Shown here: one piece after another, positions 1 through 45,164 of the stretch | Layout: the number at the start of each line of letters is the position of its first letter | Numbering within the stretch: position 1 is the stretch's first letter | Origin: a virus | DNA length: 45,164 nt | IMG/VR virus record: IMGVR_UViG_3300003465_000014 | Span: 1 to 45,164 of that record | Reading direction: 5' to 3' (one strand) | Notes under the pieces: generated by a model | The model's input: the letters and a program-made list of their open reading frames with translations, nothing else | Database searches by the model: none | Told to the model about the DNA's origin: nothing | Translations under genes and position numbers: made by a program

Positions 1-99
1 CGTGACTGCGGTGAACAGGAGATCGTTGTTCGTGCCTGTGAGTGCCGTCGTGAGCGTGGCCGCCACGGCTGTGAACTGTGTTTCCACCTTCACCTGGAT
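1..99. repeat. Terminal direct repeat copy 1 (circular assembly overlap)
   Basis: Bases 1-99 are identical to 45066-45164 by direct reading. The repeat is bounded exactly by the window ends and lies inside an ORF. Confidence 0.95.
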
Positions 100-13217: not shown

Positions 13218-13750
13218 CGCATCCCACTCATGCGCGGCATCGTGCGCGACCTCATCATGCGCGGCGGGTTCCGTGGATCGTCGGCACGGAGTTCACGACG
13301 GCGCAACGGATCGCTGTCGCGATAGTAGGCGCCATCCCATCCAGCGGCCAGGTCGCGCGGATATGGGCCGCGGTGGAACTCGTCGCCCTCTTGGCTCGCA
13401 CGGTATCGGGCCTCGTGCCATGCCCGCGTCGCCCATTCCTCCAGCGGCTCCGCGTTCCGCGCTTCCATGCCGGTCATGTCGGCCATGTCATAGCGGTCCA
13501 TCGGGCGACCCATCGACATCATGCCTTGGCTCTGGGCGCGACCGCTGGACATGCGTTCCATACCGCGCATGCCCTTCATGCCGCCCATTCTTGCCATCGA
13601 CTGCATCGTGCGGGTGCCGTCGGGCCGCTGGATGACCATAGCGAGGATACGACCGCTCCCGAAGGGCATGTTGCGAGCGGTGTTCTTCGCGGGCTGACGT
13701 GAGCGGCTTCCGCTCATCCCGCTCATCCCGCCCATGCTCATGCCGTTCAT
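13214..13750 (-). CDS. Methionine-rich protein (178 aa, 26 Met)
   Basis: MGGMSGMSG / MGGMKGMRGMERM / GMMSMGRPM / DMADMTGM / RMMRSRTMPRMSGMR motifs. ATGA overlaps at both ends. GC3 consistent with coding. Confidence 0.65.
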   Translation of the reverse strand: MNGMSMGGMSGMSGSRSRQPAKNTARNMPFGSGRILAMVIQRPDGTRTMQSMARMGGMKGMRGMERMSSGRAQSQGMMSMGRPMDRYDMADMTGMEARNAEPLEEWATRAWHEARYRASQEGDEFHRGPYPRDLAAGWDGAYYRDSDPLRRRELRADDPRNPPRMMRSRTMPRMSGMR

Positions 13751-15687
13751 GGGGTCCGTGACTGTACGCGAGGGAGTCGGGCGCGGAGTGAGTCGATCTG
13801 CCGCTGCTGCTGCTGCACCGTAGCGATGAGCACCGCCAGCACCGCCCGGTCGTTCACGTTGATTGGATCGCCCTTCGAGATGCTGAGCGACGCATCGTCC
13901 TGCCCCGCGTAGAACGCAAGGTCGCGGTTGACCTTCGCCGCCTCCTCAGCAATCAGCCCGAACTCGCGGCGCTCGTTGTAGAAACCGAGCTTGTACCGGT
14001 AGTGCTTGGGGCTGAGCGCCATGAGCGTGCGAGTGGCAACCTGCGGAGAGAGCGTCGTGATGTTGGTCTTGATCTTCGCCGTCGAGGAGCCGCACGTCGC
14101 GCCCTGCGTTACGCTGCTATCAGTTTTCCAGCACAGGGATACGTCACCTGCACCAGTCGCGGCGGCCGTTCTAACCTTGATGACGCCTCCGGCACGCAAG
14201 TACAAATTCTTCCCTGACTCCGCGTATATGGAGAGAGCGTTATCGGTTGACCCGGTAAAAGCCCCATGCACGCCAACATAACCAGAGGCTGTACCGTCCC
14301 TTGACATACGCACCCATCCACCGCCACCTGACGAGGAGCCGCCATTAAGATAGAGAAGGCCGGAATTGGCGTTGGCGCCTCCCGCACCAATGTTCACCTG
14401 CCCTAAAAACGTCGCGCTTGAATCCGCGCCGAGCACCAGCGTGTTTTTCGCAGCACCAGCACTCGTGGTGGTTTGCAACGTCATCGTGCGCGAGTTCCCG
14501 GTGCCCGCTTGAATTGTCATGTTGCCTGCGCCGCCTTGCAGGAGCGTGTTTGCCCCACCAGCAATATAAAGCGACTTGAAACCGCCCGTTGTGACGCCAA
14601 TCGTATCAGCGTTATTTCGATTAAAGAATCCTGTATTGTTATCGTTCACCCACGTCACCGACGGTTGCGATTCGCCACCCGTAGGATTTAGCTGTAACTG
14701 ACCGACGTTGCTGCTATGTGACAAGACAACAACGTTGATGGGTGTTCCCGTAATTCCGGTGGCGTAGAGCGTAGTCGTTTGGCTGGCACCAATAGGAGCA
14801 ATGGCGATGCTACCGTTCCCTTCGAGCTTCGGCCCTGCAAGCATGCGCCACGTCCACACGCCCGCATTGCTAAATCCGAGCGTGTCCACGCCGAAGCGGT
14901 AGAGGCCAGTCCCACGCGAGTTGAGCAGGCTGATGCTCGGCGCTGCCGCCGTGCCGTCACCCGCCCAGAACCGCGTCGCCTTGACCGAGTCGAACGTCAC
15001 CGCGCGCACGGTGTCGGTCACGGTCGCGCCGCCGCCGCCGGCAGGACAGCCCGTACAACTCGTGACGATGATGTTCGCGAACCGCGCGCCGTTGAGCGCG
15101 ATCAGCGAGTCGAGCATGCTGGCACGGCCACGGACCCGGAGGATGCCCTTCACGCGCACCGAGTCGAGCGAGTCGCCGCGCGCCAGCGTGCGCTTCAACT
15201 CACCGATCGACTGTGCGCGGGTGCGTGACGCGGAGTCCGACACCAGCACGAGCGCCGAGTCGTTGACGCCCGTGGTCGCGGTGGCACGCGGAAGCTGGCG
15301 GATGTTCTGCGCTTCAACGGTCGCTACGAAGAACGATGCGAACGCCCTCCCGAGGCGTTTCCACGTCCAGGGGCGCGGTGGAACCGGTGGCTGCGTCTCC
15401 CGCACCGCCCGATGGAGCGCACCGTCGATGTATCCGCGCCAGTAGGTCTGACGGGCCGTTGGCAGCGTGTGAAGAGGTTGCAGCGAGTCAGGGGACTCCC
15501 GCACCAGCGTGTCACCCTTTGCCGTGACCTGCGCGACCGTAGCGCCGACGCTAACAAAGTTCAGCGTGGAACGCTGCGACAGGAAAAGCCCGCTGTTGAG
15601 CGGGGAGTCAAACCTGACGGTCTGCGCGAGCGCCGGGGTGGCGCACGACGCCAGCAGTAGTGTCAGGTACGCAAGAATGCGTTTCAT
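13747..15687 (-). CDS. Fibre/spike-like protein with N-terminal lipoprotein-type signal and C-terminal S74 intramolecular chaperone domain (646 aa)
   Basis: ATG 15687 has GAGGA 7 nt upstream. N-terminus MKRILAYLTLLLASC (lipobox LASC). Fibre motif AAPSISLLNSRGTGLYRFGVDTLGFSNAG. Gly/Asn/Thr-rich repeats. Confidence 0.7.
   Translation of the reverse strand: MKRILAYLTLLLASCATPALAQTVRFDSPLNSGLFLSQRSTLNFVSVGATVAQVTAKGDTLVRESPDSLQPLHTLPTARQTYWRGYIDGALHRAVRETQPPVPPRPWTWKRLGRAFASFFVATVEAQNIRQLPRATATTGVNDSALVLVSDSASRTRAQSIGELKRTLARGDSLDSVRVKGILRVRGRASMLDSLIALNGARFANIIVTSCTGCPAGGGGATVTDTVRAVTFDSVKATRFWAGDGTAAAPSISLLNSRGTGLYRFGVDTLGFSNAGVWTWRMLAGPKLEGNGSIAIAPIGASQTTTLYATGITGTPINVVVLSHSSNVGQLQLNPTGGESQPSVTWVNDNNTGFFNRNNADTIGVTTGGFKSLYIAGGANTLLQGGAGNMTIQAGTGNSRTMTLQTTTSAGAAKNTLVLGADSSATFLGQVNIGAGGANANSGLLYLNGGSSSGGGGWVRMSRDGTASGYVGVHGAFTGSTDNALSIYAESGKNLYLRAGGVIKVRTAAATGAGDVSLCWKTDSSVTQGATCGSSTAKIKTNITTLSPQVATRTLMALSPKHYRYKLGFYNERREFGLIAEEAAKVNRDLAFYAGQDDASLSISKGDPINVNDRAVLAVLIATVQQQQRQIDSLRARLPRVQSRTP
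13750..14088 (-). other. Peptidase S74-like intramolecular chaperone auto-processing domain
   Basis: SSTAKIKTNITTLSP...LSPKHYRYK...EFGLIAEEAAKV...VNDRAVLAVLIATVQQQQRQIDSL matches the canonical S74 fibre C-terminal pattern. Confidence 0.65.
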
Positions 15688-15689
15688 GG

Positions 15690-15905
15690 TCAGGTCCTCA
15701 AGAGACCAGAATACGCGGGCACGGCCTTCGTGCCGACGTTCACGTAGATGTTTTCGTTCGTCGTGTCGTAGTACAGCTCGCCCGTGTCTACGACGCCGAC
15801 GCCGGTGACGCCATCCGTGGGCGCACCAGCGCCCTGGAGCTTGTAAAGCGTCGCCGCACCGCCAGGAGCCGGGGCGCCCGCAGACCATCCGAGTCCGATA
15901 GACAT
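15690..15905 (-). CDS. Hypothetical small protein (71 aa)
   Basis: ORF placed tightly between the neighbouring genes. Confidence 0.5.
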   Translation of the reverse strand: MSIGLGWSAGAPAPGGAATLYKLQGAGAPTDGVTGVGVVDTGELYYDTTNENIYVNVGTKAVPAYSGLLRT

Positions 15906-24061: not shown

Positions 24062-24148
24062 GGAGCGGTGGCTGAGTGGCTGAAGGTGCTGCCCTGGAAA
24101 GGCAGTGTACGGGCAACCGTACCGTGGGTTCGAATCCCACCCGCTCCG
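24062..24148 (+). tRNA. tRNA-Ser (anticodon GGA), class II with long variable arm
   Basis: Acceptor GGAGCGG/CCGCTCC. Anticodon stem CTGCC/GGCAG with loop CTGGAAA. Variable arm GTACGG-GCAA-CCGTAC. T arm GTGGG-TTCGAAT-CCCAC. Discriminator G. No encoded CCA. Confidence 0.9.
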
Positions 24149-24648: not shown

Positions 24649-25266
24649 TCACAAGCCCGCCCTCCGATACCGTTCACGGCGACGTGCGTTTATCTGGTCG
24701 CGGTGCCGTAGCGCAGACTGTCGGCTGGCCGCACAACTACACGTCCGGCACTGGCGGCGCAGCTTCCCGTTCTTCCGCCGGCACCACATCGTATTCTCGG
24801 GCGTGAACTCGTGGCCGCGCTTGCAGTGCGTTTTCTCGGCGTTCATGCGCGGGTAGCCCTTCGCCACACCCGGGGCGTTCATCCGGCGCTTCCGGCAGGC
24901 GTCCACCATGTTGTCGTGCTGCGTCCCGAGAAACAGGTGATCGGGGTTCACGCACAAGCGCGTGTCACAGTGGTGGTTGACCTGGAGCCCGTCAGGAATC
25001 GGCCCGCGGTGCAGCTCCCAGGACCAGCGATGCGCCCCGATGATGCGTGGCCTCACGCCACGGCCACCGCCCAGCTTGATCGTCCCGTAGCCGTTCGAGC
25101 GCGTACTGCCGAGCCACAGCCAGCATCCGCTGTTCGGCTCGGGCACGTAGTGGCAGTCGGACGGCCGGCGCGGCGCACTCCACTTCCTGCCCTTCGTGGA
25201 GAACGCGGGGCGGACGATCCGCGGGCTCGCAATCGCTTCTCGAGCTTCCTGGTCGAGTCGGCTCAT
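24649..25266 (-). CDS. HNH homing-type endonuclease (205 aa)
   Basis: GCWLWLGSTRSNGYGTIK...AHRWSWELHRGPIPDGLQVNHHCDTRLCVNPDHLFLGTQHDNMVD is a canonical HNH_3 pattern. Confidence 0.85.
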   Translation of the reverse strand: MSRLDQEAREAIASPRIVRPAFSTKGRKWSAPRRPSDCHYVPEPNSGCWLWLGSTRSNGYGTIKLGGGRGVRPRIIGAHRWSWELHRGPIPDGLQVNHHCDTRLCVNPDHLFLGTQHDNMVDACRKRRMNAPGVAKGYPRMNAEKTHCKRGHEFTPENTMWCRRKNGKLRRQCRTCSCAASRQSALRHRDQINARRRERYRRAGL

Positions 25267-25763
25267 TTCGGCCCCACTGAGGGCGGAAGGTCCGACAGCG
25301 TGTGGCGAGAGTCGGCGAACTCAGTACGGACGGCCATCAGCAGGCAGCCGAGCGTGTTCCGCCCGACGCCGTTCACCTGCCCCCAGAAGCGGTTGACCTC
25401 GTTGTCCACCGTCGCGCTCTCGATCAGCTCCGCGTCACCAGTGGACAGCAGTAGGTCGCGCAGGTCGTCGTGTTGTCCGAACTTCGCCCGCAGTACATCG
25501 TGCATCCGGCCGACCTTCGACTGTGACCAACCCGGCGCGATGTCGTAGCTGTAGAGTCCATGCGCGGCCATCGCCAGCAAGCCCGGCGACGGTGCCGCCA
25601 TGAGCCAGTCGCGCACCGATGCTCGCCGCGGCTTGCCGAACTGGTAGGCATGCTCGGCGGTCGGGAACTCGCGGCCCTCGAACTGAATCGGTCGGCGAAA
25701 CAGGTTGCTGAATGCCCCGTAGGGCCGCTCGTTCGCCCGGTAGAACCGGATGGCCTCAGCCAT
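25263..25763 (-). CDS. NADAR (YbiA/DUF1768) domain protein (166 aa)
   Basis: FYRANERPYGAFSNLFRRPIQFEGREFPTAEHAYQFGK plus FWGQVNGVGRNTLGCLLM. ATG 25763 overlaps the upstream gene by 8 nt. Confidence 0.75.
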   Translation of the reverse strand: MAEAIRFYRANERPYGAFSNLFRRPIQFEGREFPTAEHAYQFGKPRRASVRDWLMAAPSPGLLAMAAHGLYSYDIAPGWSQSKVGRMHDVLRAKFGQHDDLRDLLLSTGDAELIESATVDNEVNRFWGQVNGVGRNTLGCLLMAVRTEFADSRHTLSDLPPSVGPK

Positions 25764-26304
25764 TCTTGCCGCCCTCCGGCTCGGGACGACGCGCGGCGGC
25801 ATCAAGCAGCGAATCAAGCCCGCAGAGGCAGGTGCGCTCGGACACGATACTCTTGGGGCACAGTCCATCGTGCTCGCCGAACTTTTCCAGGGCGTCGTAG
25901 AGCGCCTTACACGTGAGGGCCAGTGCTTCCGGCTCGCCATCAATGCCATTCTCAATGACCCACTCGATCTGGTGACGCGAATAAAAACGCTCAGGAGCCG
26001 CCACATCGTTGTGCCACGCATCCTGACACGACGCGTCCAATCCGCCACACGATGGGCACGATGCCACGGTGGGCGACGGCGGCAGTCCGCGCTGAAGTAC
26101 AACTCCCCTCACCTTCGCTGGATCAAAGCCCATACGGCGTAGCGTGGCGTCCTCGTCGGTGTTCGACGGCGATTTGACCGGAAACGGCTTCGCCTTGCGT
26201 ACTGCCCACGTCGGCGGGGCCTGTATCTGCGTACTGCATGTGGCGCAGCGGCCTGATAGCGCATCAACGGCGACGGGGTCATCACCACAGTTGGGGCATT
26301 TCAT
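25756..26304 (-). CDS. Cys-rich zinc-ribbon protein (182 aa)
   Basis: MKCPNCGD...CATC and CPSCGG...C motifs. Confidence 0.55.
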   Translation of the reverse strand: MKCPNCGDDPVAVDALSGRCATCSTQIQAPPTWAVRKAKPFPVKSPSNTDEDATLRRMGFDPAKVRGVVLQRGLPPSPTVASCPSCGGLDASCQDAWHNDVAAPERFYSRHQIEWVIENGIDGEPEALALTCKALYDALEKFGEHDGLCPKSIVSERTCLCGLDSLLDAAARRPEPEGGKNG

Positions 26305-36857: not shown

Positions 36858-37034
36858 CTAGTTGCCGGTGCCGTTCTTCGAGATCGCGTCGCGGAGCCCG
36901 AACACGCCGAGCAGGATGCCCCCGGCTTGGACGATCACCTCCGGTGTCACGGCCGGCGCCGTGAGGACCACGCTGGCCGCGGTGAAGATGCCGCCCCAGA
37001 CGGTTTTCGATTTGAGCAGTTTCTTGAAATTCAT
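36858..37034 (-). CDS. Holin-like small membrane protein (58 aa)
   Basis: Manual translation: MNFKKLLKSKTVWGGIFTAASVVLTAPAVTPEVIVQAGGILLGVFGLRDAISKNGTGN. Two hydrophobic segments. ATGA overlap with the amidase stop. Below the ORF-track cutoff. Confidence 0.55.
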   Translation of the reverse strand: MNFKKLLKSKTVWGGIFTAASVVLTAPAVTPEVIVQAGGILLGVFGLRDAISKNGTGN

Positions 37035-37579
37035 AGAGCCCTCGACTCGGTAGGTGTGGGAACTTCGGTTTGCAGCGTGCGGATTAATGCCTTCAAGCGG
37101 TCCATATCGAACAATGGGCCAGGGTCGTGCTTTACCTCAGCCTCGGGATGGCCCTTGGCACGCCACGCTTCTCGGATCACGGCGTGCGTCGTGAGACGGT
37201 CGAGCGTGATGGCGGGGTAGAGCTCCATCCAGCCCGCGACGACAGCCGCGCCGCTCACATATTGCGCGTCCACATACAGCTCTTTCCCATCGTTGCGGTT
37301 GGCGAACGCGAGGCCGAGCGAGAACTGGTTGACGTTATCGCGGCCGTCGAATGTTGAGACGCCGGCGTGCCACGCACGGCGGGATGGCTCCACGAACCGA
37401 TAGACCGTACCATCGCGGTCCACGAGGGAATGATACGAGACCTTGCTTTGGGGCGAGCGAATCCAACTGATTGACGCTTGTGCGTCGGCGGCAGCGTCGG
37501 CGTGAATGACCACCGTATCCACCCGCACGCCCTTGGGCCGGACGCCGTAGTTCGGCGAGGCGATGGCCACAACTCTCAT
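37031..37579 (-). CDS. N-acetylmuramoyl-L-alanine amidase endolysin (Amidase_2/AmpD-like, 182 aa)
   Basis: VVIHADA...VSYHSLVDRDGTVYRFVEPSRRAWHAGVS...FSLGLAFAN...THAVI...KHDPGPLFD. Confidence 0.85.
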   Translation of the reverse strand: MRVVAIASPNYGVRPKGVRVDTVVIHADAAADAQASISWIRSPQSKVSYHSLVDRDGTVYRFVEPSRRAWHAGVSTFDGRDNVNQFSLGLAFANRNDGKELYVDAQYVSGAAVVAGWMELYPAITLDRLTTHAVIREAWRAKGHPEAEVKHDPGPLFDMDRLKALIRTLQTEVPTPTESRAL

Positions 37580-37950
37580 GTGCGCCTGTCGTATCCGTGC
37601 ATGCGGTCTTGGGCGAGGCGATCGCGCTCCCGCTCTTCGAGCCCTTCGACCTTCTGCCGAATCTGGCGCACATCGCTGCGGAGTCCGTTCTCGCCGTCGG
37701 GGCCTACTACAAAGGCTCGGACTTCTGCGATGTCGGCCCGGACCTCAGTGAAGCTCTGATTCATCACTTGTGTGAGATTGGCGAATCGCCGATCATCGTT
37801 GCTCGTGCGATGCTTGCCCTTGTAGTGGGCGGTCACGGCGGCAGCGATGGACGTAGTGACCGTTCCAAAGCACGCTGCCAGCGTGATCCACAGTTCTTTG
37901 TCGGTATGTATGGTCGGTATGGTTGCCGCCGCAGCCTGCAAGAGAAGCAT
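37576..37950 (-). CDS. Membrane-anchored coiled-coil protein in the lysis cassette (124 aa)
   Basis: One TM segment (LWITLAACFGTVTTSIAAAVTA), then a helical region. ATGA overlap with the amidase. Confidence 0.5.
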   Translation of the reverse strand: MLLLQAAAATIPTIHTDKELWITLAACFGTVTTSIAAAVTAHYKGKHRTSNDDRRFANLTQVMNQSFTEVRADIAEVRAFVVGPDGENGLRSDVRQIRQKVEGLEERERDRLAQDRMHGYDRRT

Positions 37951-37962
37951 GGGGGTTCAGCG

Positions 37963-39891
37963 TTATGGGGAGGGGGGAGCAGAAGCCGTGGCGCGACGAC
38001 GTAGAACCGTCTGCCGAACCTGTTCTTCCTTGCTGGCCTTGTATCGGGCGTTCGCGTCCGCGCGGAGCTTGGTGACGACACGATCAATCGCGTTGGTGCG
38101 CTCTTCATCGGTCGCCGCGCGGTATTCCTCGCTCGCCATTAACTGGCCCAACACCTGCTCGACCTGTGGGCCGATCTCGTTCACGAGCGTGCGGTATTCC
38201 TCATTCGTGCGCTTCAGGGGGACGCCGAGCATCCGTACCGTGCGGCCCGGTTTCCCGATAGTCGTCTTGAGCCGGGCGAGTTCGTCCAGCACGGGCGTTT
38301 CCCGCGCTCTACGGAGAGAGGCGGGAGACGCGATATCCCCGATGCGTTCCAGCGCTGTGCGCTGTGGCAGTTCGCCGAGGGAGCCCTGCGCCCGCGGCGT
38401 AGTAGCCCGTGCACCGAGCCGTGACGCGATGCGCTCGGTGAGCGTGACGGGTGCACGGCGGTAAGGGTTTGCCGCACTTGCCACCCGGCCGACGATCGCC
38501 GGCGTTGGGATCTGACTCGCGATGAGCGACGTGAGTTTCCGCTCGGGTTCTGTGATAGCGTCGAGCACTCGCCGAACGCCCATGAGGTACGTCTGCTCTG
38601 TGAGAAAGCGCCCGGTCTCGCCTGCACCCTTGAGCGCGATCTCGCCCGCCGTGGCGTCTGGTTCTTCAGCGTGTTGCGCGATGGCCGCGCCCATGAAAAG
38701 CGCACCAGTCCAGGGCGCGAGAAAGCGACCGTCTACCCAATAGTCGCCGACGCGGAGTGAATAGGGCTGCATCCCGCGCGCTTCCCAATCGCCACGTTCC
38801 TGCGGGTTCGTCGGATAGGCACCCGTGATTTTTTTGTCCTTTGCCAACTTGTAGCCGAGCGCCATCAACGTTGCGCCGACACCCTGAACGGCGACACGGC
38901 GGGCGAGTGCTTGGGGGCTCTCAGCCGTCAGGAAGCTCAGGAAGCCAATGGGCGACATGTTCGCGGTCTTGGCCGCGATCGAGGACGGCACGCCCGTGAA
39001 CGGCAGTGTCATTTCCGCGAAATAGCTGCCGACCCTCCCAGAAAGTTGCGTCGCACGTTGCTTCTGCTGTGCGAGGGCCGATGCCGTGGGCTCTACCTTC
39101 GTGTCAGCCATCCGCTTGAAGGACTGCTTGAGGGCAGACGCTCCCTTCGCGAGCATCCCACGGTCCTTGAATGTCGCCCACATCGCGTCATCAGACGCCC
39201 GGGCGATCATTTCGTCGGTCGGGTTCTCGAAGTAACGCGCAGCGCGGGCTGCTAATTCCGCGCCTTTCGCCCCTTCCTTCATCGCCATCAGCTTTGCTTG
39301 GGCGTAGAGCGAACTATTGAGCGAGAGGAAGAAATACGGCCGGTCGGCTGCCTCTTGGACGGCGTAGGCGCCGTCCACCATCGCCTGAAGGGTCCTGTTT
39401 TTGTACTTCACGCGGTCGTATTCCAGCGCGTTGGCGACCTGCTCGGCGTCGAGTCGCGTGGAGAGCTCGTCCACAAACGTGCGGAGCGCACCGCCAAACT
39501 GGCCCTTCCGCATCTGTCGAAGCGCGAGGCCCGCGGCTTCACGCATCGGCTTGGTGCCGCGCCCAAGCCCGCGCACCATCGCGCCAATGCCCGACGCATC
39601 AAGGCTGGACGTGAGCGTGCGGAGTTCGGTCGGCGATACCTTGAAGCCCGTGCGCGCCGATTTCCCAATGGCGTTCAGGTAGTCGAATGCCACGGCCACC
39701 GGCTTTACGGCGAGTTCGTTGATGGCGTTCCATGCCGCGTTGCCGCCTGCTGCCTTGAGGAACGTCGAGGGGGCAGTAAGGAAGCCCGCCTTGAGCGCTG
39801 TGGTCGTTTTCTCGACGGCTGTGGCCTCGCGGAGTTCGGCGACGTAACGCGAGAGTTTTGCCTTGGCAAGCGCACAGGTCATCGGGGGCAT
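37963..39891 (-). CDS. Large internal-virion/ejection-like protein (642 aa)
   Basis: Position, size and helical Ala-rich composition with hydrophobic central segments. No enzymatic motif recognised. Confidence 0.45.
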   Translation of the reverse strand: MPPMTCALAKAKLSRYVAELREATAVEKTTTALKAGFLTAPSTFLKAAGGNAAWNAINELAVKPVAVAFDYLNAIGKSARTGFKVSPTELRTLTSSLDASGIGAMVRGLGRGTKPMREAAGLALRQMRKGQFGGALRTFVDELSTRLDAEQVANALEYDRVKYKNRTLQAMVDGAYAVQEAADRPYFFLSLNSSLYAQAKLMAMKEGAKGAELAARAARYFENPTDEMIARASDDAMWATFKDRGMLAKGASALKQSFKRMADTKVEPTASALAQQKQRATQLSGRVGSYFAEMTLPFTGVPSSIAAKTANMSPIGFLSFLTAESPQALARRVAVQGVGATLMALGYKLAKDKKITGAYPTNPQERGDWEARGMQPYSLRVGDYWVDGRFLAPWTGALFMGAAIAQHAEEPDATAGEIALKGAGETGRFLTEQTYLMGVRRVLDAITEPERKLTSLIASQIPTPAIVGRVASAANPYRRAPVTLTERIASRLGARATTPRAQGSLGELPQRTALERIGDIASPASLRRARETPVLDELARLKTTIGKPGRTVRMLGVPLKRTNEEYRTLVNEIGPQVEQVLGQLMASEEYRAATDEERTNAIDRVVTKLRADANARYKASKEEQVRQTVLRRRATASAPPSP

Positions 39892-39893
39892 AG

Positions 39894-42428
39894 TCAGGCG
39901 CCTCCACAGGCGAGGGTGGCTTCCTTGGCCAGCCGGCGAATCTCTAGCATCACGGCGTCAGGCATCGGGCGGTCGCCCAAGAGTTGCTTTCCGCGAATCA
40001 ACCAGACGTCTGGGTCCAACGTCTGCCGAGCCATCTGGCGCAAGCCGCCGAGCGTGCGGCCGGCCTCCGCAGACTCGCGCACGATCGTGGCGAGTGCTTC
40101 GTCCGTCGCTTTCTGCGCGGCGCCCATAGTCCGCATCGCGGCCTCGATCTCGGCCGGCGACAAGTCTCCAGAGTTGATCGCGCGGGCGGCAGACTCGATG
40201 ACGGCCGTGTTCTCCTGAACAACTTCCTTCAACGCCACAATCTGGTAGCCCTTAAGGTTCGTCAGCTTTTCGCGGTCGATCTGGAGCGGGTCAGCGATAA
40301 GCTCCTTGGCGAACTGCTCGCCAAGTTTCCGCTGTTCAAGGAACGAGACGCTGCCTTTCTCCAGTTGGCCAGCCGCGCGCAGTTCGTCCGTCCGCTGTTG
40401 GATACGCGACATGACTTCAGGGCGCTCGCCCCAGGTACGCCAGTTGATGAACGGGCGTGCGGCGCTCACCTTGCGCGCCTGTTTCGCCGCTTGGAGCGCG
40501 GCGTCGGCCTCGGTAAACGTCGCGCCATGCGTGCCGGTCAATGAGACGGTCGTGGCATTCTTCTCGGCGCCAAACCTCCGTTCACCGAACAGCTGCTCTG
40601 CGCGAGCGCGCACGGACTCGGCAACGCTTTCGGGCGCGAGCACCACGAACTCGTCGCCGCCGCGGCGGAACACCCGCTCGCCGACGCCATGTTCCTGTGC
40701 GGCCTGCCGGACCGCCGCCGCCACGTCCTTGATCGCTTGGTCACCAGCCTCTTGCCCGATGCGCTTGTTGATCTGTCCGAAGTTGTCAGCGTCGAATACG
40801 ACAATGCGCGTCCCGGGGTCTGCCGCAGCGGCCGGGAGCGCGCGATCTAGTGCGGCTCGGTTCGCAACGCCCGTAAGTGCATCGGTCTCGGCCGCGCGCT
40901 GCGCGACGTTCCGAGCTTCGCGCTCCTGTTGGATCTGGTCCGTCAACTCCTTGACACGACGCTCCAGGTTCTCGGGGAGGGGAATCGTCTCGGGTTCTGT
41001 GGCTTCGCCCGCGCGCATGGCGAGCGGTCGGCCCTCCTCGATCGCGGCAGCGGTCGCACGGTCGGCAAAGACTGGAGGCGCATCGGCCCCGCGTGCACCG
41101 ACCGCTGCCGCTGATGGAATGCGCGACTCTTGCCCGCCCATCGTGAAGCCTTCTGGGAATCGCTCAGTCGTTCCAGGCTGCGGCGTGTGCGGCGTTTCCG
41201 GCCCCAATTCTTCGTCCAGTATGCGCTTCAACTCACTGAGCACTGGGCTGGATTCGATCGTCTCAGGAGTGACGGGCGCCGGTTCGGCTGGCATCTCACC
41301 CTTGGGCCGACGCCGGATGCCGCGTGCCGCAGTCTCAGCCTGCCGCTCTACCACGTCCGCCGGTCGCTCGATGCCCTCCAGGGGCTTCGTGCGCGCAGCG
41401 GCCTTCCGGTCGAAGGCTTCCCCGAGCCGGGCCGCGAAGTCGGACGTCGCCTGCGCCTCTGGCGTCAGGGGTTCTGGTGGCAGTCGAGCGCCGCGAGGCT
41501 GGGCGGTCCCGGCTTCAATGGCCCCACGCTCTAATTCCTGCGCGAACGCCATGCGTTCCGCAGCCTCACGGGCACCCGTACTTGCGGCAGGCGTTACTGC
41601 CGGTGCTCGGCGAGCAGCACGGAATGGGGCGGAAACGGCCCGTGGCGCCGCTGCGAACCCAGCGCCAAGGGTTGCACCCACAGCAGGATCCTCAGGGCTG
41701 TATGCGGCTCCTACAGCCGCGCCGGCCGCGATTTGGGCGGGCAGCCGAGCAGTGGCCAGTGGCAGGGTGATGACGTTGGCAAGTGTCTGGAGTGCTGCCT
41801 CGGCGCGCTCTCGCGGCTCGACGGGGGCCACGTAGCCGTGGTCGGGAGGTAGCCCTCCAACCTTCGCCCCGTAGAATGTTGGGGGCGTGCTCGCCCGCCG
41901 CTGGGCATCTTCTTCACTGAACGGGGCTGTGAGTCGCGAGTATGACTCGATCGGCGCCGTCACGATGTCCTTCGCCATGCCCTTGAGGGTCGCGCCAGGC
42001 CGCTCCCGCAGTTCGGTCGCGAACCCGCCCAGCGCGTCCGCCAGCCGGCGGAAGTAGCCCGGTCGCTCCGGCTTCGTAACGACCGCGCCGGACTCCAGCA
42101 GCATCGGCGCCCCGCTTTCGAGCATCCGGCGCCGACCCGTGCTGTCTGCCGCCGTGAAGGCGCTCTCGCGCACGGCCTCATACGGCTCGGCCGTCGAAAT
42201 CGGGCGGTCGCCCGCGACTTCGCGCTCCAGCGGCGACGGGGCGCGCGACGGACGGATGGTCGCCAACGCCGAACGGTCAGGGACGCCCGCCGGGAGTTCG
42301 ACGCTTGCCCGCTCATCAGCGGCGAGGTCGGCGAAGGGGTTAGGACGCTGCGCGCGTTCTTGTTCCGCTAGATCGGCGAACGGGTTCCGCCGTTGCCGCT
42401 CAGGCTGTACCGTAATAGGGGCGGTCAT
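39894..42428 (-). CDS. Large ejection-module protein carrying a GGDEF (diguanylate cyclase-type) domain (844 aa)
   Basis: GGDEF-domain motifs at residues ~515-653. N-terminal tandem NPFADLA motifs. Disordered, Ala/Pro-rich N-terminal half and helical C-terminal domain. Confidence 0.75.
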   Translation of the reverse strand: MTAPITVQPERQRRNPFADLAEQERAQRPNPFADLAADERASVELPAGVPDRSALATIRPSRAPSPLEREVAGDRPISTAEPYEAVRESAFTAADSTGRRRMLESGAPMLLESGAVVTKPERPGYFRRLADALGGFATELRERPGATLKGMAKDIVTAPIESYSRLTAPFSEEDAQRRASTPPTFYGAKVGGLPPDHGYVAPVEPRERAEAALQTLANVITLPLATARLPAQIAAGAAVGAAYSPEDPAVGATLGAGFAAAPRAVSAPFRAARRAPAVTPAASTGAREAAERMAFAQELERGAIEAGTAQPRGARLPPEPLTPEAQATSDFAARLGEAFDRKAAARTKPLEGIERPADVVERQAETAARGIRRRPKGEMPAEPAPVTPETIESSPVLSELKRILDEELGPETPHTPQPGTTERFPEGFTMGGQESRIPSAAAVGARGADAPPVFADRATAAAIEEGRPLAMRAGEATEPETIPLPENLERRVKELTDQIQQEREARNVAQRAAETDALTGVANRAALDRALPAAAADPGTRIVVFDADNFGQINKRIGQEAGDQAIKDVAAAVRQAAQEHGVGERVFRRGGDEFVVLAPESVAESVRARAEQLFGERRFGAEKNATTVSLTGTHGATFTEADAALQAAKQARKVSAARPFINWRTWGERPEVMSRIQQRTDELRAAGQLEKGSVSFLEQRKLGEQFAKELIADPLQIDREKLTNLKGYQIVALKEVVQENTAVIESAARAINSGDLSPAEIEAAMRTMGAAQKATDEALATIVRESAEAGRTLGGLRQMARQTLDPDVWLIRGKQLLGDRPMPDAVMLEIRRLAKEATLACGGA
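40470..40886 (-). other. GGDEF domain (GGDEF motif at 40647-40661)
   Basis: DALTGVANRAALDRAL; VVFDADNFGQINKRIGQEAGDQAIKDVA; RVFRRGGDEFVVLAPE; VSLTGTHG...FTEADAALQAAKQARK. Preceded by the coiled coil LERRVKELTDQIQQEREARNVAQRAAE. Confidence 0.8.
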
Positions 42429-42446
42429 CTGTCAAGCGGAGGGCGA

Positions 42447-42713
42447 ATGACGGCACTGCGGCGGTTATTGGTGGGCTTGGCTATCGCTTCTGCAGCGGTG
42501 GCTTTCTGGGCGTTCGTTTGGCCGACTCCTTGGGTATATCGGCAACTCGCTGGCAGTGGGACGCTGGTGCGCGTACATCGCATCACTGACCGCACACAGA
42601 TGCTCGGAGAGACAGGATGGCGTGGTCTGAGGGCGAATCCGTTCAGCGATCTCGTTGTGGAGGAGCAGAAGGCGAACGATTCTGGCCAAGCTGCCGCTCT
42701 ACCTCGGCGATAG
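42447..42713 (+). CDS. Opposite-strand small membrane protein (88 aa), moron candidate
   Basis: GGAGGG 3 nt upstream of ATG 42447. TM segment LLVGLAIASAAVAFWAFVW. Fills the 214-bp gap between two minus-strand genes. Locally lower GC/GC3. Its 3' end overlaps the 444-aa gene by about 70 nt. Confidence 0.45.
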   Translation: MTALRRLLVGLAIASAAVAFWAFVWPTPWVYRQLAGSGTLVRVHRITDRTQMLGETGWRGLRANPFSDLVVEEQKANDSGQAAALPRR

Positions 42714-43977
42714 TCACGGCACTTACCCCAGAAGCGCGCAGTTCGTCGAGTGTGCCCTCACCCTTCTGTATCCGCTCCACAGCGCGCTGGACGATTGTCG
42801 GTGTTTGGCGCCCGCCACCCAACACAGTGTCCACTTCCCGCGTCGCCTGCTCATGTGCCTTGTCGAGCGGCATGCCCGGCTTGGTCAGTCCAGTCCCAGG
42901 GTCGCGGGCCGGTCTGACGAGTTCCTGAACTCTGCGCCAGACGGCGGCTTGCCGGCGATCCTCGTCCCGTTGATCCTCTCGCGCTTCAGGATTGGCGCGC
43001 CGGAAGGGCTTCTTGTCCGGTCCCGTGACTGGATGCGTTGCGCCCGTGCGCGGATTCACGCGGTACAGATAGCCCTGATCGTCGGTTTGGATGGACCATG
43101 ACTCTGACGGCTCACGCGGGAACAGGATGTTGTCCGCAAGCGCTGGGTTCTCGACGGCGGCGCGGGCCTTCTCTGGTGTCATGCCGGCGGCGATATAGGC
43201 CGCGACTTTGCGGTCGCGTTCGCCCGCTTCTTCCTGTTGCCGGAGTTCGGCGGCGAGCTGCGCGCCGGCGACCTGTCGCTCCCATGCACGGGCTTCCTTT
43301 GTGCCCCATGTATCGACGTAGCCCTCGCCTGCAGGACTGTCAGCGTTGACGTAGCGGTCGCGCGGGGACATACGGACCTCACGACCAGGGCCGCGCTGAG
43401 GTGCCGGCCTCGGCGGACCGCCGAACGTTCCGGTCGCTGGATTGAAGGCGCCCGGTGTCGTGTCACTCGTCGGCTCAGTCCGACTCGCGTGGCCAGCCAT
43501 GCCGCCCATGGTATCAGGCCCACCGGCGGTCGGACCTGTAGGCGCCATGCGCGTCGTCGCTGGAGCGCGCCATAGTGGATCTGGGTCGGGTCGCCGCGGC
43601 GACGTGCCGCGGAGGTTCGCCCCGAGGTTCCGCGCGAAAGAGTCCTCAGCGAGCGGTGACACCGGCGGCTGCGGCCGTGCCGCGGGTGGCCGTGTGAGCT
43701 CGCCCGCGAGCGCTGTTCCTGGCGCCCCGATCTCGGGGAAAAAGACCGTCGGCTCTTTGGGCTGCGGGCCAGTGCGGTAGCCGGAGAGCGCCAAGTCGGC
43801 CGCGTCGCGTCGGGCCTGCCGATCGCGGTCCTCCATCGCCATGCGCCGGTCCTCGGCGCGCTCGCGCTCCATGTTGGCTTGCCGGCGTCGATCACGGTAC
43901 ATCTCCAACGCATCAGCCACATACGCCGTAATTGGCGTGCCGTACTCGGGCAACACTTGAGGCGAGTAACGGCTCAT
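42643..43977 (-). CDS. Disordered Pro/Arg-rich internal-virion-like protein (444 aa)
   Basis: Composition and position. ATGA overlap with the upstream gene. Confidence 0.5.
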   Translation of the reverse strand: MSRYSPQVLPEYGTPITAYVADALEMYRDRRRQANMERERAEDRRMAMEDRDRQARRDAADLALSGYRTGPQPKEPTVFFPEIGAPGTALAGELTRPPAARPQPPVSPLAEDSFARNLGANLRGTSPRRPDPDPLWRAPATTRMAPTGPTAGGPDTMGGMAGHASRTEPTSDTTPGAFNPATGTFGGPPRPAPQRGPGREVRMSPRDRYVNADSPAGEGYVDTWGTKEARAWERQVAGAQLAAELRQQEEAGERDRKVAAYIAAGMTPEKARAAVENPALADNILFPREPSESWSIQTDDQGYLYRVNPRTGATHPVTGPDKKPFRRANPEAREDQRDEDRRQAAVWRRVQELVRPARDPGTGLTKPGMPLDKAHEQATREVDTVLGGGRQTPTIVQRAVERIQKGEGTLDELRASGVSAVTIAEVERQLGQNRSPSAPPQRDR

Positions 43978-44529: not shown

Positions 44530-44715
44530 CTACCCTATGGTGTAGGTGATGAACGCGATATAGACGCCCGAGTAGGCCACGAACTGGATCGGCGGCTCGC
44601 CAACGGCGACCCGTTCGGACCCGGAACTCGAACGCAGGAACGTGTCAATGCTGGTCTTGAGGGTGGCGATGTCCGCCTCCTCAATAATCTCCACGCGGAT
44701 CTGGGAGAGCTTCAC
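44530..44715 (-). CDS. Hypothetical small protein (61 aa)
   Basis: ATGA overlap with the upstream ORF. Confidence 0.45.
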   Translation of the reverse strand: MKLSQIRVEIIEEADIATLKTSIDTFLRSSSGSERVAVGEPPIQFVAYSGVYIAFITYTIG

Positions 44716-45164
44716 TTGTTGCTCCCCGTGGTCATACTCTCCAGGACGACCTCGTACTCGACTTCGACGCCTTCGACGGCGACGTAATCGGCACCGACGC
44801 CGCCTGTGAGTGGCGTGGCGGGCATCGCCGTGACAACGCCTGTTCCGTCGTTCCCCGGCGCGTTGGCCGCCGTCACACGCGCCGCCGCGTCAGCGTTCGC
44901 TGCGATCGCAGCGCTCACCTGTGCGGCCGTGGATGTAATGACGCTGGCACCGTCGGTAGCGAGATTCACCGTGATCGCGTTGTCGGACACGCTGACCGAG
45001 AGTGACGCGCTGGGCGTCCCAGGGTCCACGTAACGGATGGTGATGTCGTTCCCACGCGGCCCTTTCGTGACTGCGGTGAACAGGAGATCGTTGTTCGTGC
45101 CTGTGAGTGCCGTCGTGAGCGTGGCCGCCACGGCTGTGAACTGTGTTTCCACCTTCACCTGGAT
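44712..45164 (-). CDS. C-terminal part of the junction-spanning ORF
   Basis: The track ORF 44712..45158 starts at an internal GTG. The frame stays open to 45164 and continues from 100..447 in the circular molecule. ATGA overlap with the next gene at 44712-44715. Confidence 0.6.
   Translation of the reverse strand: MQVKVETQFTAVAATLTTALTGTNNDLLFTAVTKGPRGNDITIRYVDPGTPSASLSVSVSDNAITVNLATDGASVITSTAAQVSAAIAANADAAARVTAANAPGNDGTGVVTAMPATPLTGGVGADYVAVEGVEVEYEVVLESMTTGSNK
45066..45164. repeat. Terminal direct repeat copy 2 (circular assembly overlap)
   Basis: Identical to bases 1-99. Confidence 0.95.

Follow-up and report, generated by a model that had tools for sequence, protein, structure and literature searches.

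The window analysed here is the whole 45,164-nucleotide stretch (positions 1 to 45,164) of IMG/VR virus record IMGVR_UViG_3300003465_000014. It encodes, on the minus strand, an 844-amino-acid (844-aa) protein in which a complete GGDEF domain of the diguanylate-cyclase type lies between a long N-terminal region and a conserved C-terminal module. In the reading favoured here, to which we give about an even chance, this protein is a polyvalent ejection protein, packed in the virion and injected, whose swappable slot holds a minimal stalk-GGDEF cyclase without the RxxD inhibitory site (I-site); packaging, ejection, activity, product and host consequence are predictions of that reading. A preliminary description of the same DNA, made from the sequence alone, had proposed a packaged and injected cyclic-dinucleotide synthase at this position.

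Domain architecture and fold

The open reading frame (ORF) and its parts are as follows.

39894..42428, minus strand: putative 844-aa polyvalent-type ejection protein with GGDEF cargo, the N-terminal 'half' of a split gp16-like protein (ORF, homologues, family search)
40989..42428, minus strand: N-terminal family region, residues 1–480, mostly low-complexity and Ala/Pro-rich with conserved islands (alignment)
42324..42386, minus strand: tandem NPFADL motif, residues 15–20 and 30–35, conserved in homologues P0002, P0004 and P0006
41643..41774, minus strand: Gly/Ala-rich, mildly hydrophobic conserved segment, residues 219–262, containing GAAYSPEDPAVGATLGAG
40893..40979, minus strand: stalk helix, residues 484–512 (model helix; best structural match the DgcB coiled coil plus GGDEF)
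40464..40892, minus strand: GGDEF domain, residues 513–655 (Pfam, PDB sequence matches, fold, substitution ratios)
40647..40661, minus strand: GGDEF signature, residues 590–594, with R588 ahead of it (sequence, alignment of relatives)
39897..40451, minus strand: conserved C-terminal anchor module, residues 660–844, which defines the carrier family and abuts a 642-like module in fused homologues

The GGDEF domain is real and complete, far beyond chance. Pfam model PF00990 covers residues 513–646 with E = 8.2e-18 (65.1 bits against a gathering cut-off of 23.8), seven PHROG families containing a GGDEF domain match, and 43 solved diguanylate cyclases are recovered by sequence, the best at E = 2.7e-11. 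An AlphaFold model of residues 481–661, built on 17 relatives, reaches a mean predicted local distance difference test score (pLDDT) of 95 and positions a 28-residue N-terminal helix (about residues 486–513) ahead of a five-strand GGDEF core. In a Foldseek comparison with the PDB, the top 50 matches are all GGDEF enzymes, with template-modelling scores (TM) of 0.5–0.72; the coiled-coil+GGDEF fragment of C. crescentus DgcB (6ttr) ranks first (E = 4e-10, TM 0.68–0.72), followed by SadC, WspR, SiaD and PleD. The preliminary description had read the 844-aa ORF as an intact GGDEF domain preceded by a stalk. The ORF and its length are as described; the profile match bears out the domain, and the model, which superposes on DgcB, WspR and PleD, bears out the domain and the helix ahead of it.

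Codon-level comparison with the two closest homologues gives a ratio of nonsynonymous to synonymous substitution rates (dN/dS) of 0.09–0.12 for the GGDEF segment, 0.09–0.14 for the family core module and 0.23–0.28 for the N-terminal region, with dS saturated for the window pairs and about 0.2 for P0002 versus P0003. The low ratio indicates purifying selection on the GGDEF segment as strong as on the rest of the conserved protein. The domain therefore looks functional, its cyclase activity being a prediction.

The N-terminal region contains two conserved elements. The NPFADL(A) tandem is kept in homologues irrespective of the presence of GGDEF and may be a capsid-interior packaging or targeting signal. 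Residues 219–262 form the sole hydrophobic peak of the protein, and columns G240–L254 within them are invariant in the homologue alignment; the family member P0127 has a Gly-zipper Pfam match, and the segment is a candidate membrane-active or glycine-zipper-like element.

Active-site residues

The active site was compared with that of PleD, using the numbering and residue roles summarised in PMC7288161 and PMC12943098.

PleD D327, metal ligand: window D546
PleD N335 and D344, guanine contacts: window N554 and D563, with identical 9-residue spacing
PleD R366, Arg two residues ahead of the motif: window R588
PleD GG(D/E)EF active-site motif: window residues 590–594
PleD K442 and R446, phosphate binding: window K649 (nearly invariant) and R652/K653

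When the 16 closest relatives are aligned with the window domain, the equivalents of D327, N335, D344, R366, GG(D/E)EF and K442 are invariant or nearly so. The motifs quoted in the preliminary description are all present within residues 514–653, namely ETDALTGVANRAALDRAL (514–531), VVFDADNFGQINKRIGQEAGDQAIKDVA (543–570), RVFRRGGDEFVVLAPE (585–600), VSLTGTHG (628–635) and FTEADAALQAAKQARK (638–653), and the guanine-contacting Asn and Asp are retained as it stated. It was also right that no RxxD lies just upstream of the signature: residues 581–584 (positions -9 to -6 from GGDEF) read G-V-G-E, and RxxD is absent from the consensus of the GGDEF subfamily. Its phrase 'every hallmark motif' holds for the GGDEF, metal, guanine and phosphate residues but not throughout, since the canonical DxDxFK...ND...GH reads DADNFG...NK...GQ in the window protein, which places Gly551 at the position of PleD K332.

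The K332 side chain is the proposed transition-state stabiliser of PleD, and its backbone contacts phosphate (PMC12943098); this backbone contact would remain with glycine. Gly551 is nearly invariant in the subfamily. In the clade sequences examined, positions 332 and 336 hold either Gly with Lys/Arg or Lys with Asp, never a mixture. The window pair (residues 551 and 555; 40764–40778, minus strand) is Gly and Lys. The co-variation is seen among relatives P0009–P0024, P0039, P0051 and P0054, most of which have Gly with Lys/Arg, while Lys with Asp occurs in the remaining clade members and in canonical enzymes. This pattern suggests a relocated lysine rather than decay.

The same substitutions bear on the alternative, in our view unlikely, that the domain is catalytically dead or weak and that the ejection complex uses it to bind GTP, to dimerise or as a structural module, for example as a sensor of the cytoplasm that triggers a DNA-delivery step. 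The changes from Lys to Gly, ND to NK and GH to GQ are what such a module could show, some carrier homologues have SGDEF, GGDEM or GGDEL, and degenerate GGDEF domains are known as GTP sensors (PMC7288161). Nevertheless, the metal, guanine and phosphate residues, the Arg ahead of the motif and the D-E of GGDEF are invariant or nearly so, the exchange of Gly/Lys with Lys/Asp among relatives suggests compensation, and dN/dS is about 0.1. The subtype also exists as a stand-alone protein of 170–280 aa, in which there is nothing else to regulate.

The carrier family and its cargo slot

Homologues of the 844-aa protein share their ends and differ in the middle. GGDEF is present in P0002 (849 aa) and P0003 (982 aa), whereas P0004–P0007 (597–904 aa) match at the N-terminal region and over the final ~185 residues but lack the domain, which places the cyclase in a variable middle slot. 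The gene order, consisting of a ~300–444-aa protein, the carrier and a ~612–643-aa protein, is kept in three related contigs (L001–L003), and in two of the three a matching series of small genes, which have no annotation in these contigs, follows downstream.

With the GGDEF segment left out of the profile, a search against 1.84 billion representatives matches 304 clusters at E ≤ 1e-3, so that the carrier family numbers at least 304 clusters. What its members conserve is the C-terminal module of ~185 residues, and in 123 of 144 proteins nothing follows this module. In the other 21 the sequence continues past the anchor module, by ~560–700 residues in 19 of them. In these 19 clusters the added stretch is homologous, over its full length, to the 642-aa protein encoded beside the 844-aa gene (E = 1e-18 to 5e-44), and the fusions indicate that the 844-aa and 642-aa genes are the split form of one protein, whose fused form reaches 3,634 aa elsewhere. 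As judged from these comparisons, the two products together would constitute a split gp16-like polyvalent internal-virion (ejection) protein.

The slot is occupied by a range of effectors. A Pfam scan of 108 family members finds GGDEF (4), ART-PolyVal (3), ddrB-ParB (2) and Zeta toxin (2), together with LPD3, 2'-5' RNA ligase/2H and GNAT domains. Specifically, P0109 has Zeta toxin, ART-PolyVal and then the anchor; P0133 has RelA_SpoT (below the Pfam cut-off), ddrB-ParB, ART-PolyVal and then the anchor; and P0088 has ddrB-ParB followed by the anchor. By a local hidden Markov model (HMM), the phage-type GGDEF is found in ~10 carrier clusters, usually immediately ahead of the anchor (P0001, P0002, P0003, P0039, P0043, P0051, P0052, P0054 and two fragments), and the same subtype recurs across these homologous carriers. 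As a separate observation, the giant relatives P0109, P0127, P0133, P0088 and P0165 span 1,500–3,634 aa and combine Zeta toxin, ART-PolyVal, ddrB-ParB and the sub-threshold RelA_SpoT match with Gly-zipper segments, all ahead of this anchor.

In family content the carrier belongs with the polyvalent proteins, and it would work like them; these proteins have been interpreted as entering the cell along with the DNA at the very start of infection (Iyer, Burroughs, Anand, de Souza and Aravind 2017; PMC5512222). In that study GGDEF already appears among the domains found occasionally in polyvalent proteins, whose injection together with the phage DNA it predicts; the Acetonema longum prophage protein WP_004096050.1 is an example. 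The window protein is likewise a large product of a late gene that lies among virion genes, and it has an exchangeable effector slot; its family has the ART-PolyVal, LPD3, ddrB-ParB, Zeta toxin, 2H and sub-threshold RelA_SpoT domains of that class. It differs in that GGDEF is its only effector recognisable by Pfam, against two or three in homologous carriers; the LPD, ART-PolyVal and ddrB-ParB signature domains occur in family members and not in the window protein. In addition, the window protein is split into two genes, and its anchor is a non-Pfam module adjacent or fused to a gp16-like protein rather than a MuF, portal or MPTase domain. Neither the anchor (residues 660–844) nor the 642-like module has a Pfam model.

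Because Iyer et al. had listed GGDEF in polyvalent proteins, the idea of an injected GGDEF is not new in principle. The preliminary description was aware of no characterised virion-delivered GGDEF enzyme; a literature search of incomplete coverage likewise found no paper on an experimentally characterised virion-delivered diguanylate cyclase. New here are the un-annotated anchor module with its gp16-like partner, the split genes and the recurrence of GGDEF in the carrier family, as well as the I-site-free, lysine-swap GGDEF subtype common to carrier proteins and stand-alone mobile-element proteins.

The 642-aa partner

The link to virion proteins runs through the product of the adjoining gene.

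37963..39891, minus strand: 642-aa helical protein (phrog_6651, tblastn, family HMM, BFVD fold matches, junction sequence)

The 642-aa protein matches phrog_6651, annotated 'internal virion protein'. In tblastn it matches the C-terminal third of Autographiviridae proteins encoded at the gp16 position, including those of Desulfovibrio phage ProddE, Roseobacter CRP phages and the cyanopodoviruses NATL2A-133 and P-GSP1. The 642 family HMM aligns with internal virion protein (IVP) D of ProddE at E = 3.5e-36 (residues 645–1191 of 1268) and with Roseobacter phage CRP-114 at E = 2.9e-18. By sequence homology, the 642-aa protein thus corresponds to the C-terminal half of 'internal virion protein D' as encoded at the gp16 position, a stretch of ~550 residues. 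Its AlphaFold model has a pLDDT of 82. Foldseek with this model against the PDB returns nothing below E = 0.37, and a PDB sequence search with the 642 family profiles returns nothing. Among the viral predicted structures of BFVD, the C-terminal ~650 residues of many large phage proteins match, with E down to 1.5e-23 and TM up to 0.75. The matched entries are named Internal virion protein (Pelagibacter and Synechococcus podoviruses), PolyVal ADP-ribosyltransferase, ART-PolyVal-like, LPD3-containing, MuF-C-containing and Nuclease.

The 844-aa protein is itself tied to gp16-position proteins only via gene fusion. Alignment of the carrier family with ProddE IVP-C, ProddE IVP-D and CRP-114 IVP-D by hhalign gives no match, and the anchor-module HMM finds nothing significant in the ProddE and CRP-114 IVPs or in T7 gp14–16; its best match, CRP-114 residues 509–626 at E ~0.09, is positionally suggestive only.

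At the junction (39889–39908, minus strand), the stop codon of the 844-aa gene and the ATG of the 642-aa gene lie 2 nt apart, and a GGAGG stands 9 nt upstream of that ATG, inside the end of the 844-aa gene. The two genes are probably translationally coupled. A programmed -1 frameshift that would fuse them was considered, the 642 frame being -1 relative to the 844 frame, and is unnecessary because the GGAGG and the 2-nt spacing of stop and start fit coupling.

It is improbable, in the light of this partner, that the 844-aa product is a non-virion assembly, lysis-timing or regulatory protein lying between structural and lysis genes by chance. Such a protein would account for a largely low-complexity N-terminal half and for searches that tied it, by sequence or by fold, to no virion protein verified by experiment. 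It would leave aside the fusion to the gp16-like module in 19 clusters, the probable translational coupling to the 642-aa gene, and the matches of phrog_6651, tblastn and BFVD that tie the partner to internal virion proteins. The placement of the GGDEF domain in an ejection-module virion protein, as first proposed, is supported by the gp16-position homology of the partner, the 19 fusions and the polyvalent effector swaps; the parallel drawn at that time with T7 gp14–16 finds no counterpart in detectable similarity, and the portal is P22-like.

Relatives of the cyclase and its place of action

The closest relatives of the GGDEF domain (45–68% identity) are stand-alone stalk-GGDEF proteins of 170–280 aa, several fragments among them. 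Three of the four examined lie in mobile-element contexts and the most distant relative is chromosomal. In L006, the stand-alone gene is in a phage early region near an integrase; in L008, a contig with an SLT-domain gene, it adjoins a 2H phosphoesterase gene; and L016 is a plasmid-like element with Mob_Pre and ParA. These contexts fit a role early in invasion, and the enzyme would reach the cell early whether it is deployed as an early gene or carried in the virion. A further GGDEF, in a 632-aa ORF of an unannotated 91-kb 'Bacteriophage sp.' record, was uninformative on virion proteins and was dropped.

The genomic position raises the question of the cell in which the enzyme acts. In one account, to which we assign a small chance, the cyclase works in the producing cell, through a late rise in cyclic di-GMP (c-di-GMP) or leaky expression in lysogens, with virion incorporation incidental or absent; reduced motility or aggregation could then release progeny among susceptible neighbours, or lysogenic conversion could result. 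The gene does lie in the late structural/lysis operon, an enzyme without an I-site would be active once dimerised, and lysogens of GGDEF-encoding Bordetella siphophages are reported to over-produce biofilm (PMC8471281). However, the same carrier slot holds toxins and ADP-ribosyltransferases typical of injected polyvalent proteins, stand-alone versions of the subtype occupy early or accessory rather than late regions, and a cytoplasmic late role leaves the fusion to the gp16-like module unexplained.

The stand-alone relatives and the guanine contacts also bear on the product. A delivered enzyme might serve as counter-defence, its c-di-GMP or other nucleotide jamming, decoying or pre-empting CBASS, type III CRISPR, Thoeris, Pycsar or Panoptes-type immunity, a purpose proposed for polyvalent-protein GGDEF domains by Iyer et al. 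(PMC5512222). The 2H phosphoesterase gene beside the stand-alone relative in L008, the 2H domain within the carrier family and the NADAR-domain protein that the phage also encodes are in keeping with this role. Hypr GGDEF domains, which give cGAMP-type output, have Ser at the D344 position (PMC7288161), whereas the Asn and Asp at the base-contacting positions of the window domain predict GTP as substrate and c-di-GMP as product. Since, moreover, the data examined contain no link of the GGDEF domain to any defence system, the chance that counter-defence is its function appears slim.

Proposed mechanism

If the 844-aa protein is packaged and injected, it would be synthesised late and enclosed in the capsid with its 642-aa partner as an internal or ejection complex, would be ejected into the cell with the leading DNA, and would refold on the cytoplasmic side. 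There, the stalk helices and the oligomeric ejection complex would pair two GTP-loaded GGDEF domains, and c-di-GMP would be made from host GTP without feedback inhibition, ahead of any phage gene expression. The early rise would drive the host toward a sessile, high-c-di-GMP state with less motility, fewer pili and an altered surface polysaccharide or cell-cycle state, a switch that could favour the phage or exclude competitors. A few enzyme dimers working at ~0.1–1 per second would yield tens to hundreds of nM per minute in a bacterial cell. To an order of magnitude, this estimated rise falls within the range of c-di-GMP receptors, so that a handful of delivered molecules could matter.

A more pointed version, which we consider less likely than not, regards this mobile-element GGDEF subfamily, with its lysine swap and missing I-site, as a weaponised constitutive cyclase that phages bring along pre-made on a gp16-like ejection protein. 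A few injected molecules would, in minutes and ahead of transcription, raise c-di-GMP or make a non-canonical product and thereby decide the outcome of infection. The outcomes would include superinfection exclusion through loss of pili or flagella, the choice between lysis and lysogeny, and evasion of nucleotide-based immunity.

Several points count against an injected, active cyclase. The phage is known as a metagenomic contig without a host, and we infer its packaging and ejection steps. Few copies would be delivered per virion, which makes the size of the c-di-GMP rise uncertain. The N-terminal transglycosylase of T7 gp16 acts in the periplasm, whereas the window cargo needs cytoplasmic GTP; by analogy with T7, the N-terminal half of the window protein might stay out of the cytoplasm. 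The family HMMs show no detectable similarity to T7 gp14, gp15 or gp16, nor do the carrier parts to solved structures, and the intermediates bear the name 'internal virion protein D' on the basis of gene position; the link to studied ejection proteins consequently runs through positional orthologues. At the active site, Gly551 replaces the PleD lysine, the variant signatures occur in some carrier homologues, and the relocation of the lysine is deduced from co-variation. In addition, no PilZ, EAL or HD-GYP domain, representing c-di-GMP receptors or phosphodiesterases, is present among the ~65 ORFs scanned with Pfam.

Should the protein prove to be packaged and active, the phage would alter a global second messenger at entry with an enzyme that it brings along rather than with an expressed gene. 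This would extend the proven injected enzymes (T4 Alt, the N4 virion RNA polymerase and the T7 gp16 transglycosylase) to signalling nucleotides, would tie c-di-GMP biology, including motility, pili, biofilm, cell cycle and phage receptors, directly to phage entry, and would provide the first second-messenger synthase shown as a virion-borne effector. The interest is bounded by the earlier computational prediction of the concept and by a phage that has no cultured host. The anchor and gp16-like partner mark at least 304 clusters of putative cargo-carrying ejection proteins and offer a handle for mining injected effectors. The compact, I-site-free stalk-GGDEF subfamily may serve as a small feedback-free cyclase, and it constitutes a natural test of whether the K332 lysine is dispensable or relocatable.

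Comparison with known systems

As in T7 gp16, where the N-terminal enzyme is a lytic transglycosylase, the window cargo lies N-terminal to a helical channel-type part, and, as for gp16 of T7 and other Autographiviridae, the gene stands near the end of the structural module. The gp16-position relatives of the 642-aa partner belong to ProddE, CRP-114, cyanopodoviruses and pelagiphages. Unlike T7 gp16, neither the 844-aa nor the 642-aa protein has an SLT or lysozyme domain by Pfam, and the window phage departs from T7 in its P22-like portal, its possible integrase and its recombination genes of the ERF and YqaJ types.

The cyclase shares its fold and N-terminal helical stalk with DgcB (6ttr), with WspR, SadC and SiaD of P. 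aeruginosa and with C. crescentus PleD. It also agrees with these enzymes in its Mg, guanine and phosphate ligands, in the GGDEF motif and in the expected chemistry, in which an antiparallel domain pair would convert two GTP to c-di-GMP. In contrast to those enzymes, the window domain has neither a sensory domain nor an RxxD I-site, has Gly at the K332 equivalent and Lys at the D336 position, and is a minimal domain of ~145 residues with shorter loops, situated inside a phage structural-module protein.

Minimal phage-encoded GGDEF proteins without a sensor domain are also present in Yuavirus (Pseudomonas phage PaSz-4 gp58) and in the Bordetella Vojvodinavirus phages LK3 and FP1. These are early or accessory proteins of 150–160 aa, unlike the window domain, which is part of a putative virion protein. 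In PaSz-4, the GGDEF gene lies beside an antirestriction gene and encodes SGDEF with the canonical K...ND arrangement. The GGDEF domains of the cultured phages show ~35% identity to the window domain (E ~0.1).

Packaged and injected phage proteins include the T4 Alt ADP-ribosyltransferase, the N4 virion RNA polymerase and the P22 ejection proteins gp7, gp20 and gp16. The window protein would resemble these in being a pre-made product delivered with the genome and acting at time zero. With P22, it shares the P22-like portal and a gene trio after the tail genes that resembles the arrangement of the ejection proteins. It differs from the T4, N4 and P22 proteins in its predicted activity, second-messenger synthesis, and no homology to them was found.

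Genome organisation and neighbouring genes

The first 99 bases of the window (1–99) are repeated exactly at 45066–45164, so that the genome, with 45,065 unique bp, is either circularly closed or terminally redundant; a minus-strand structural gene ending at 44712 spans the circular junction. Nearly all genes are on the minus strand, in the order large terminase, Peptidase_S74 fibre, P22-like portal, major capsid protein and several structural proteins, followed across the junction by a 148-aa structural protein and the 182-aa, 444-aa, 844-aa and 642-aa proteins. A 124-aa protein with a single transmembrane (TM) helix and an Amidase_2 endolysin come next. The genes on either side of the 844-aa ORF are thus those named in the preliminary description.

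42643..43977, minus strand: 444-aa Pro/Arg-rich protein upstream of the 844-aa gene, syntenic in related contigs
37031..37950, minus strand: lysis cassette of the 124-aa one-TM protein and the Amidase_2 endolysin (Pfam, PHROG, TM prediction)

Beyond the lysis genes are divergent helix-turn-helix (HTH) regulators, DUF5131, a YqaJ exonuclease, a possible integrase, the NADAR protein, an HNH endonuclease and a replication protein; the genome scan also contains an ERF-family match whose source ORF was not pinpointed. Genome scans recognise no tape measure, sheath or tube protein; from this absence and the P22-like portal, the phage is probably a temperate podovirus of ~45 kb. Neither tblastn of the 844-aa protein nor megablast of 15 kb against GenBank phages gives a match, leaving the phage with no named relative. 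A relative pair of carrier and partner, consisting of a cargo-less 603-aa carrier and a 618-aa partner, lies on the Gemmatimonadaceae metagenome-assembled genome contig CBHWDN010000007.1 (L010, 8768–12435 of a 183-kb contig). This pair suggests related prophages in Gemmatimonadota and is the sole host hint for the window phage.

The 444-aa protein, for which homology was sought and none found, is a candidate further ejection or internal protein. A 214-bp non-coding gap (42429–42642) separates its gene from the 844-aa gene and is unusual in this tightly packed operon. A promoter and terminator scan of 36.5–45.2 kb gives fewer sites than in shuffled controls and none in the gap.

Three further features lie elsewhere in the genome. 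A 279-aa protein (25263–26102, minus strand) has a C-terminal NADAR domain (Pfam E = 7e-23), and its gene adjoins the HNH endonuclease gene at 24649–25266; NADAR domains are linked to the reversal of ADP-ribosylation, which makes this a possible counter-defence gene. On the plus strand, which holds hardly any genes, 24062–24148 is a complete tRNA-Ser (anticodon GGA); it may be a tRNA of the phage or have to do with an integration site. Finally, a 713-aa fibre/spike-like protein (13747–15888, minus strand) ends in a Peptidase_S74 intramolecular chaperone domain, and its gene stands upstream of the portal gene, between it and the terminase gene, an atypical place for a podovirus receptor-binding protein.

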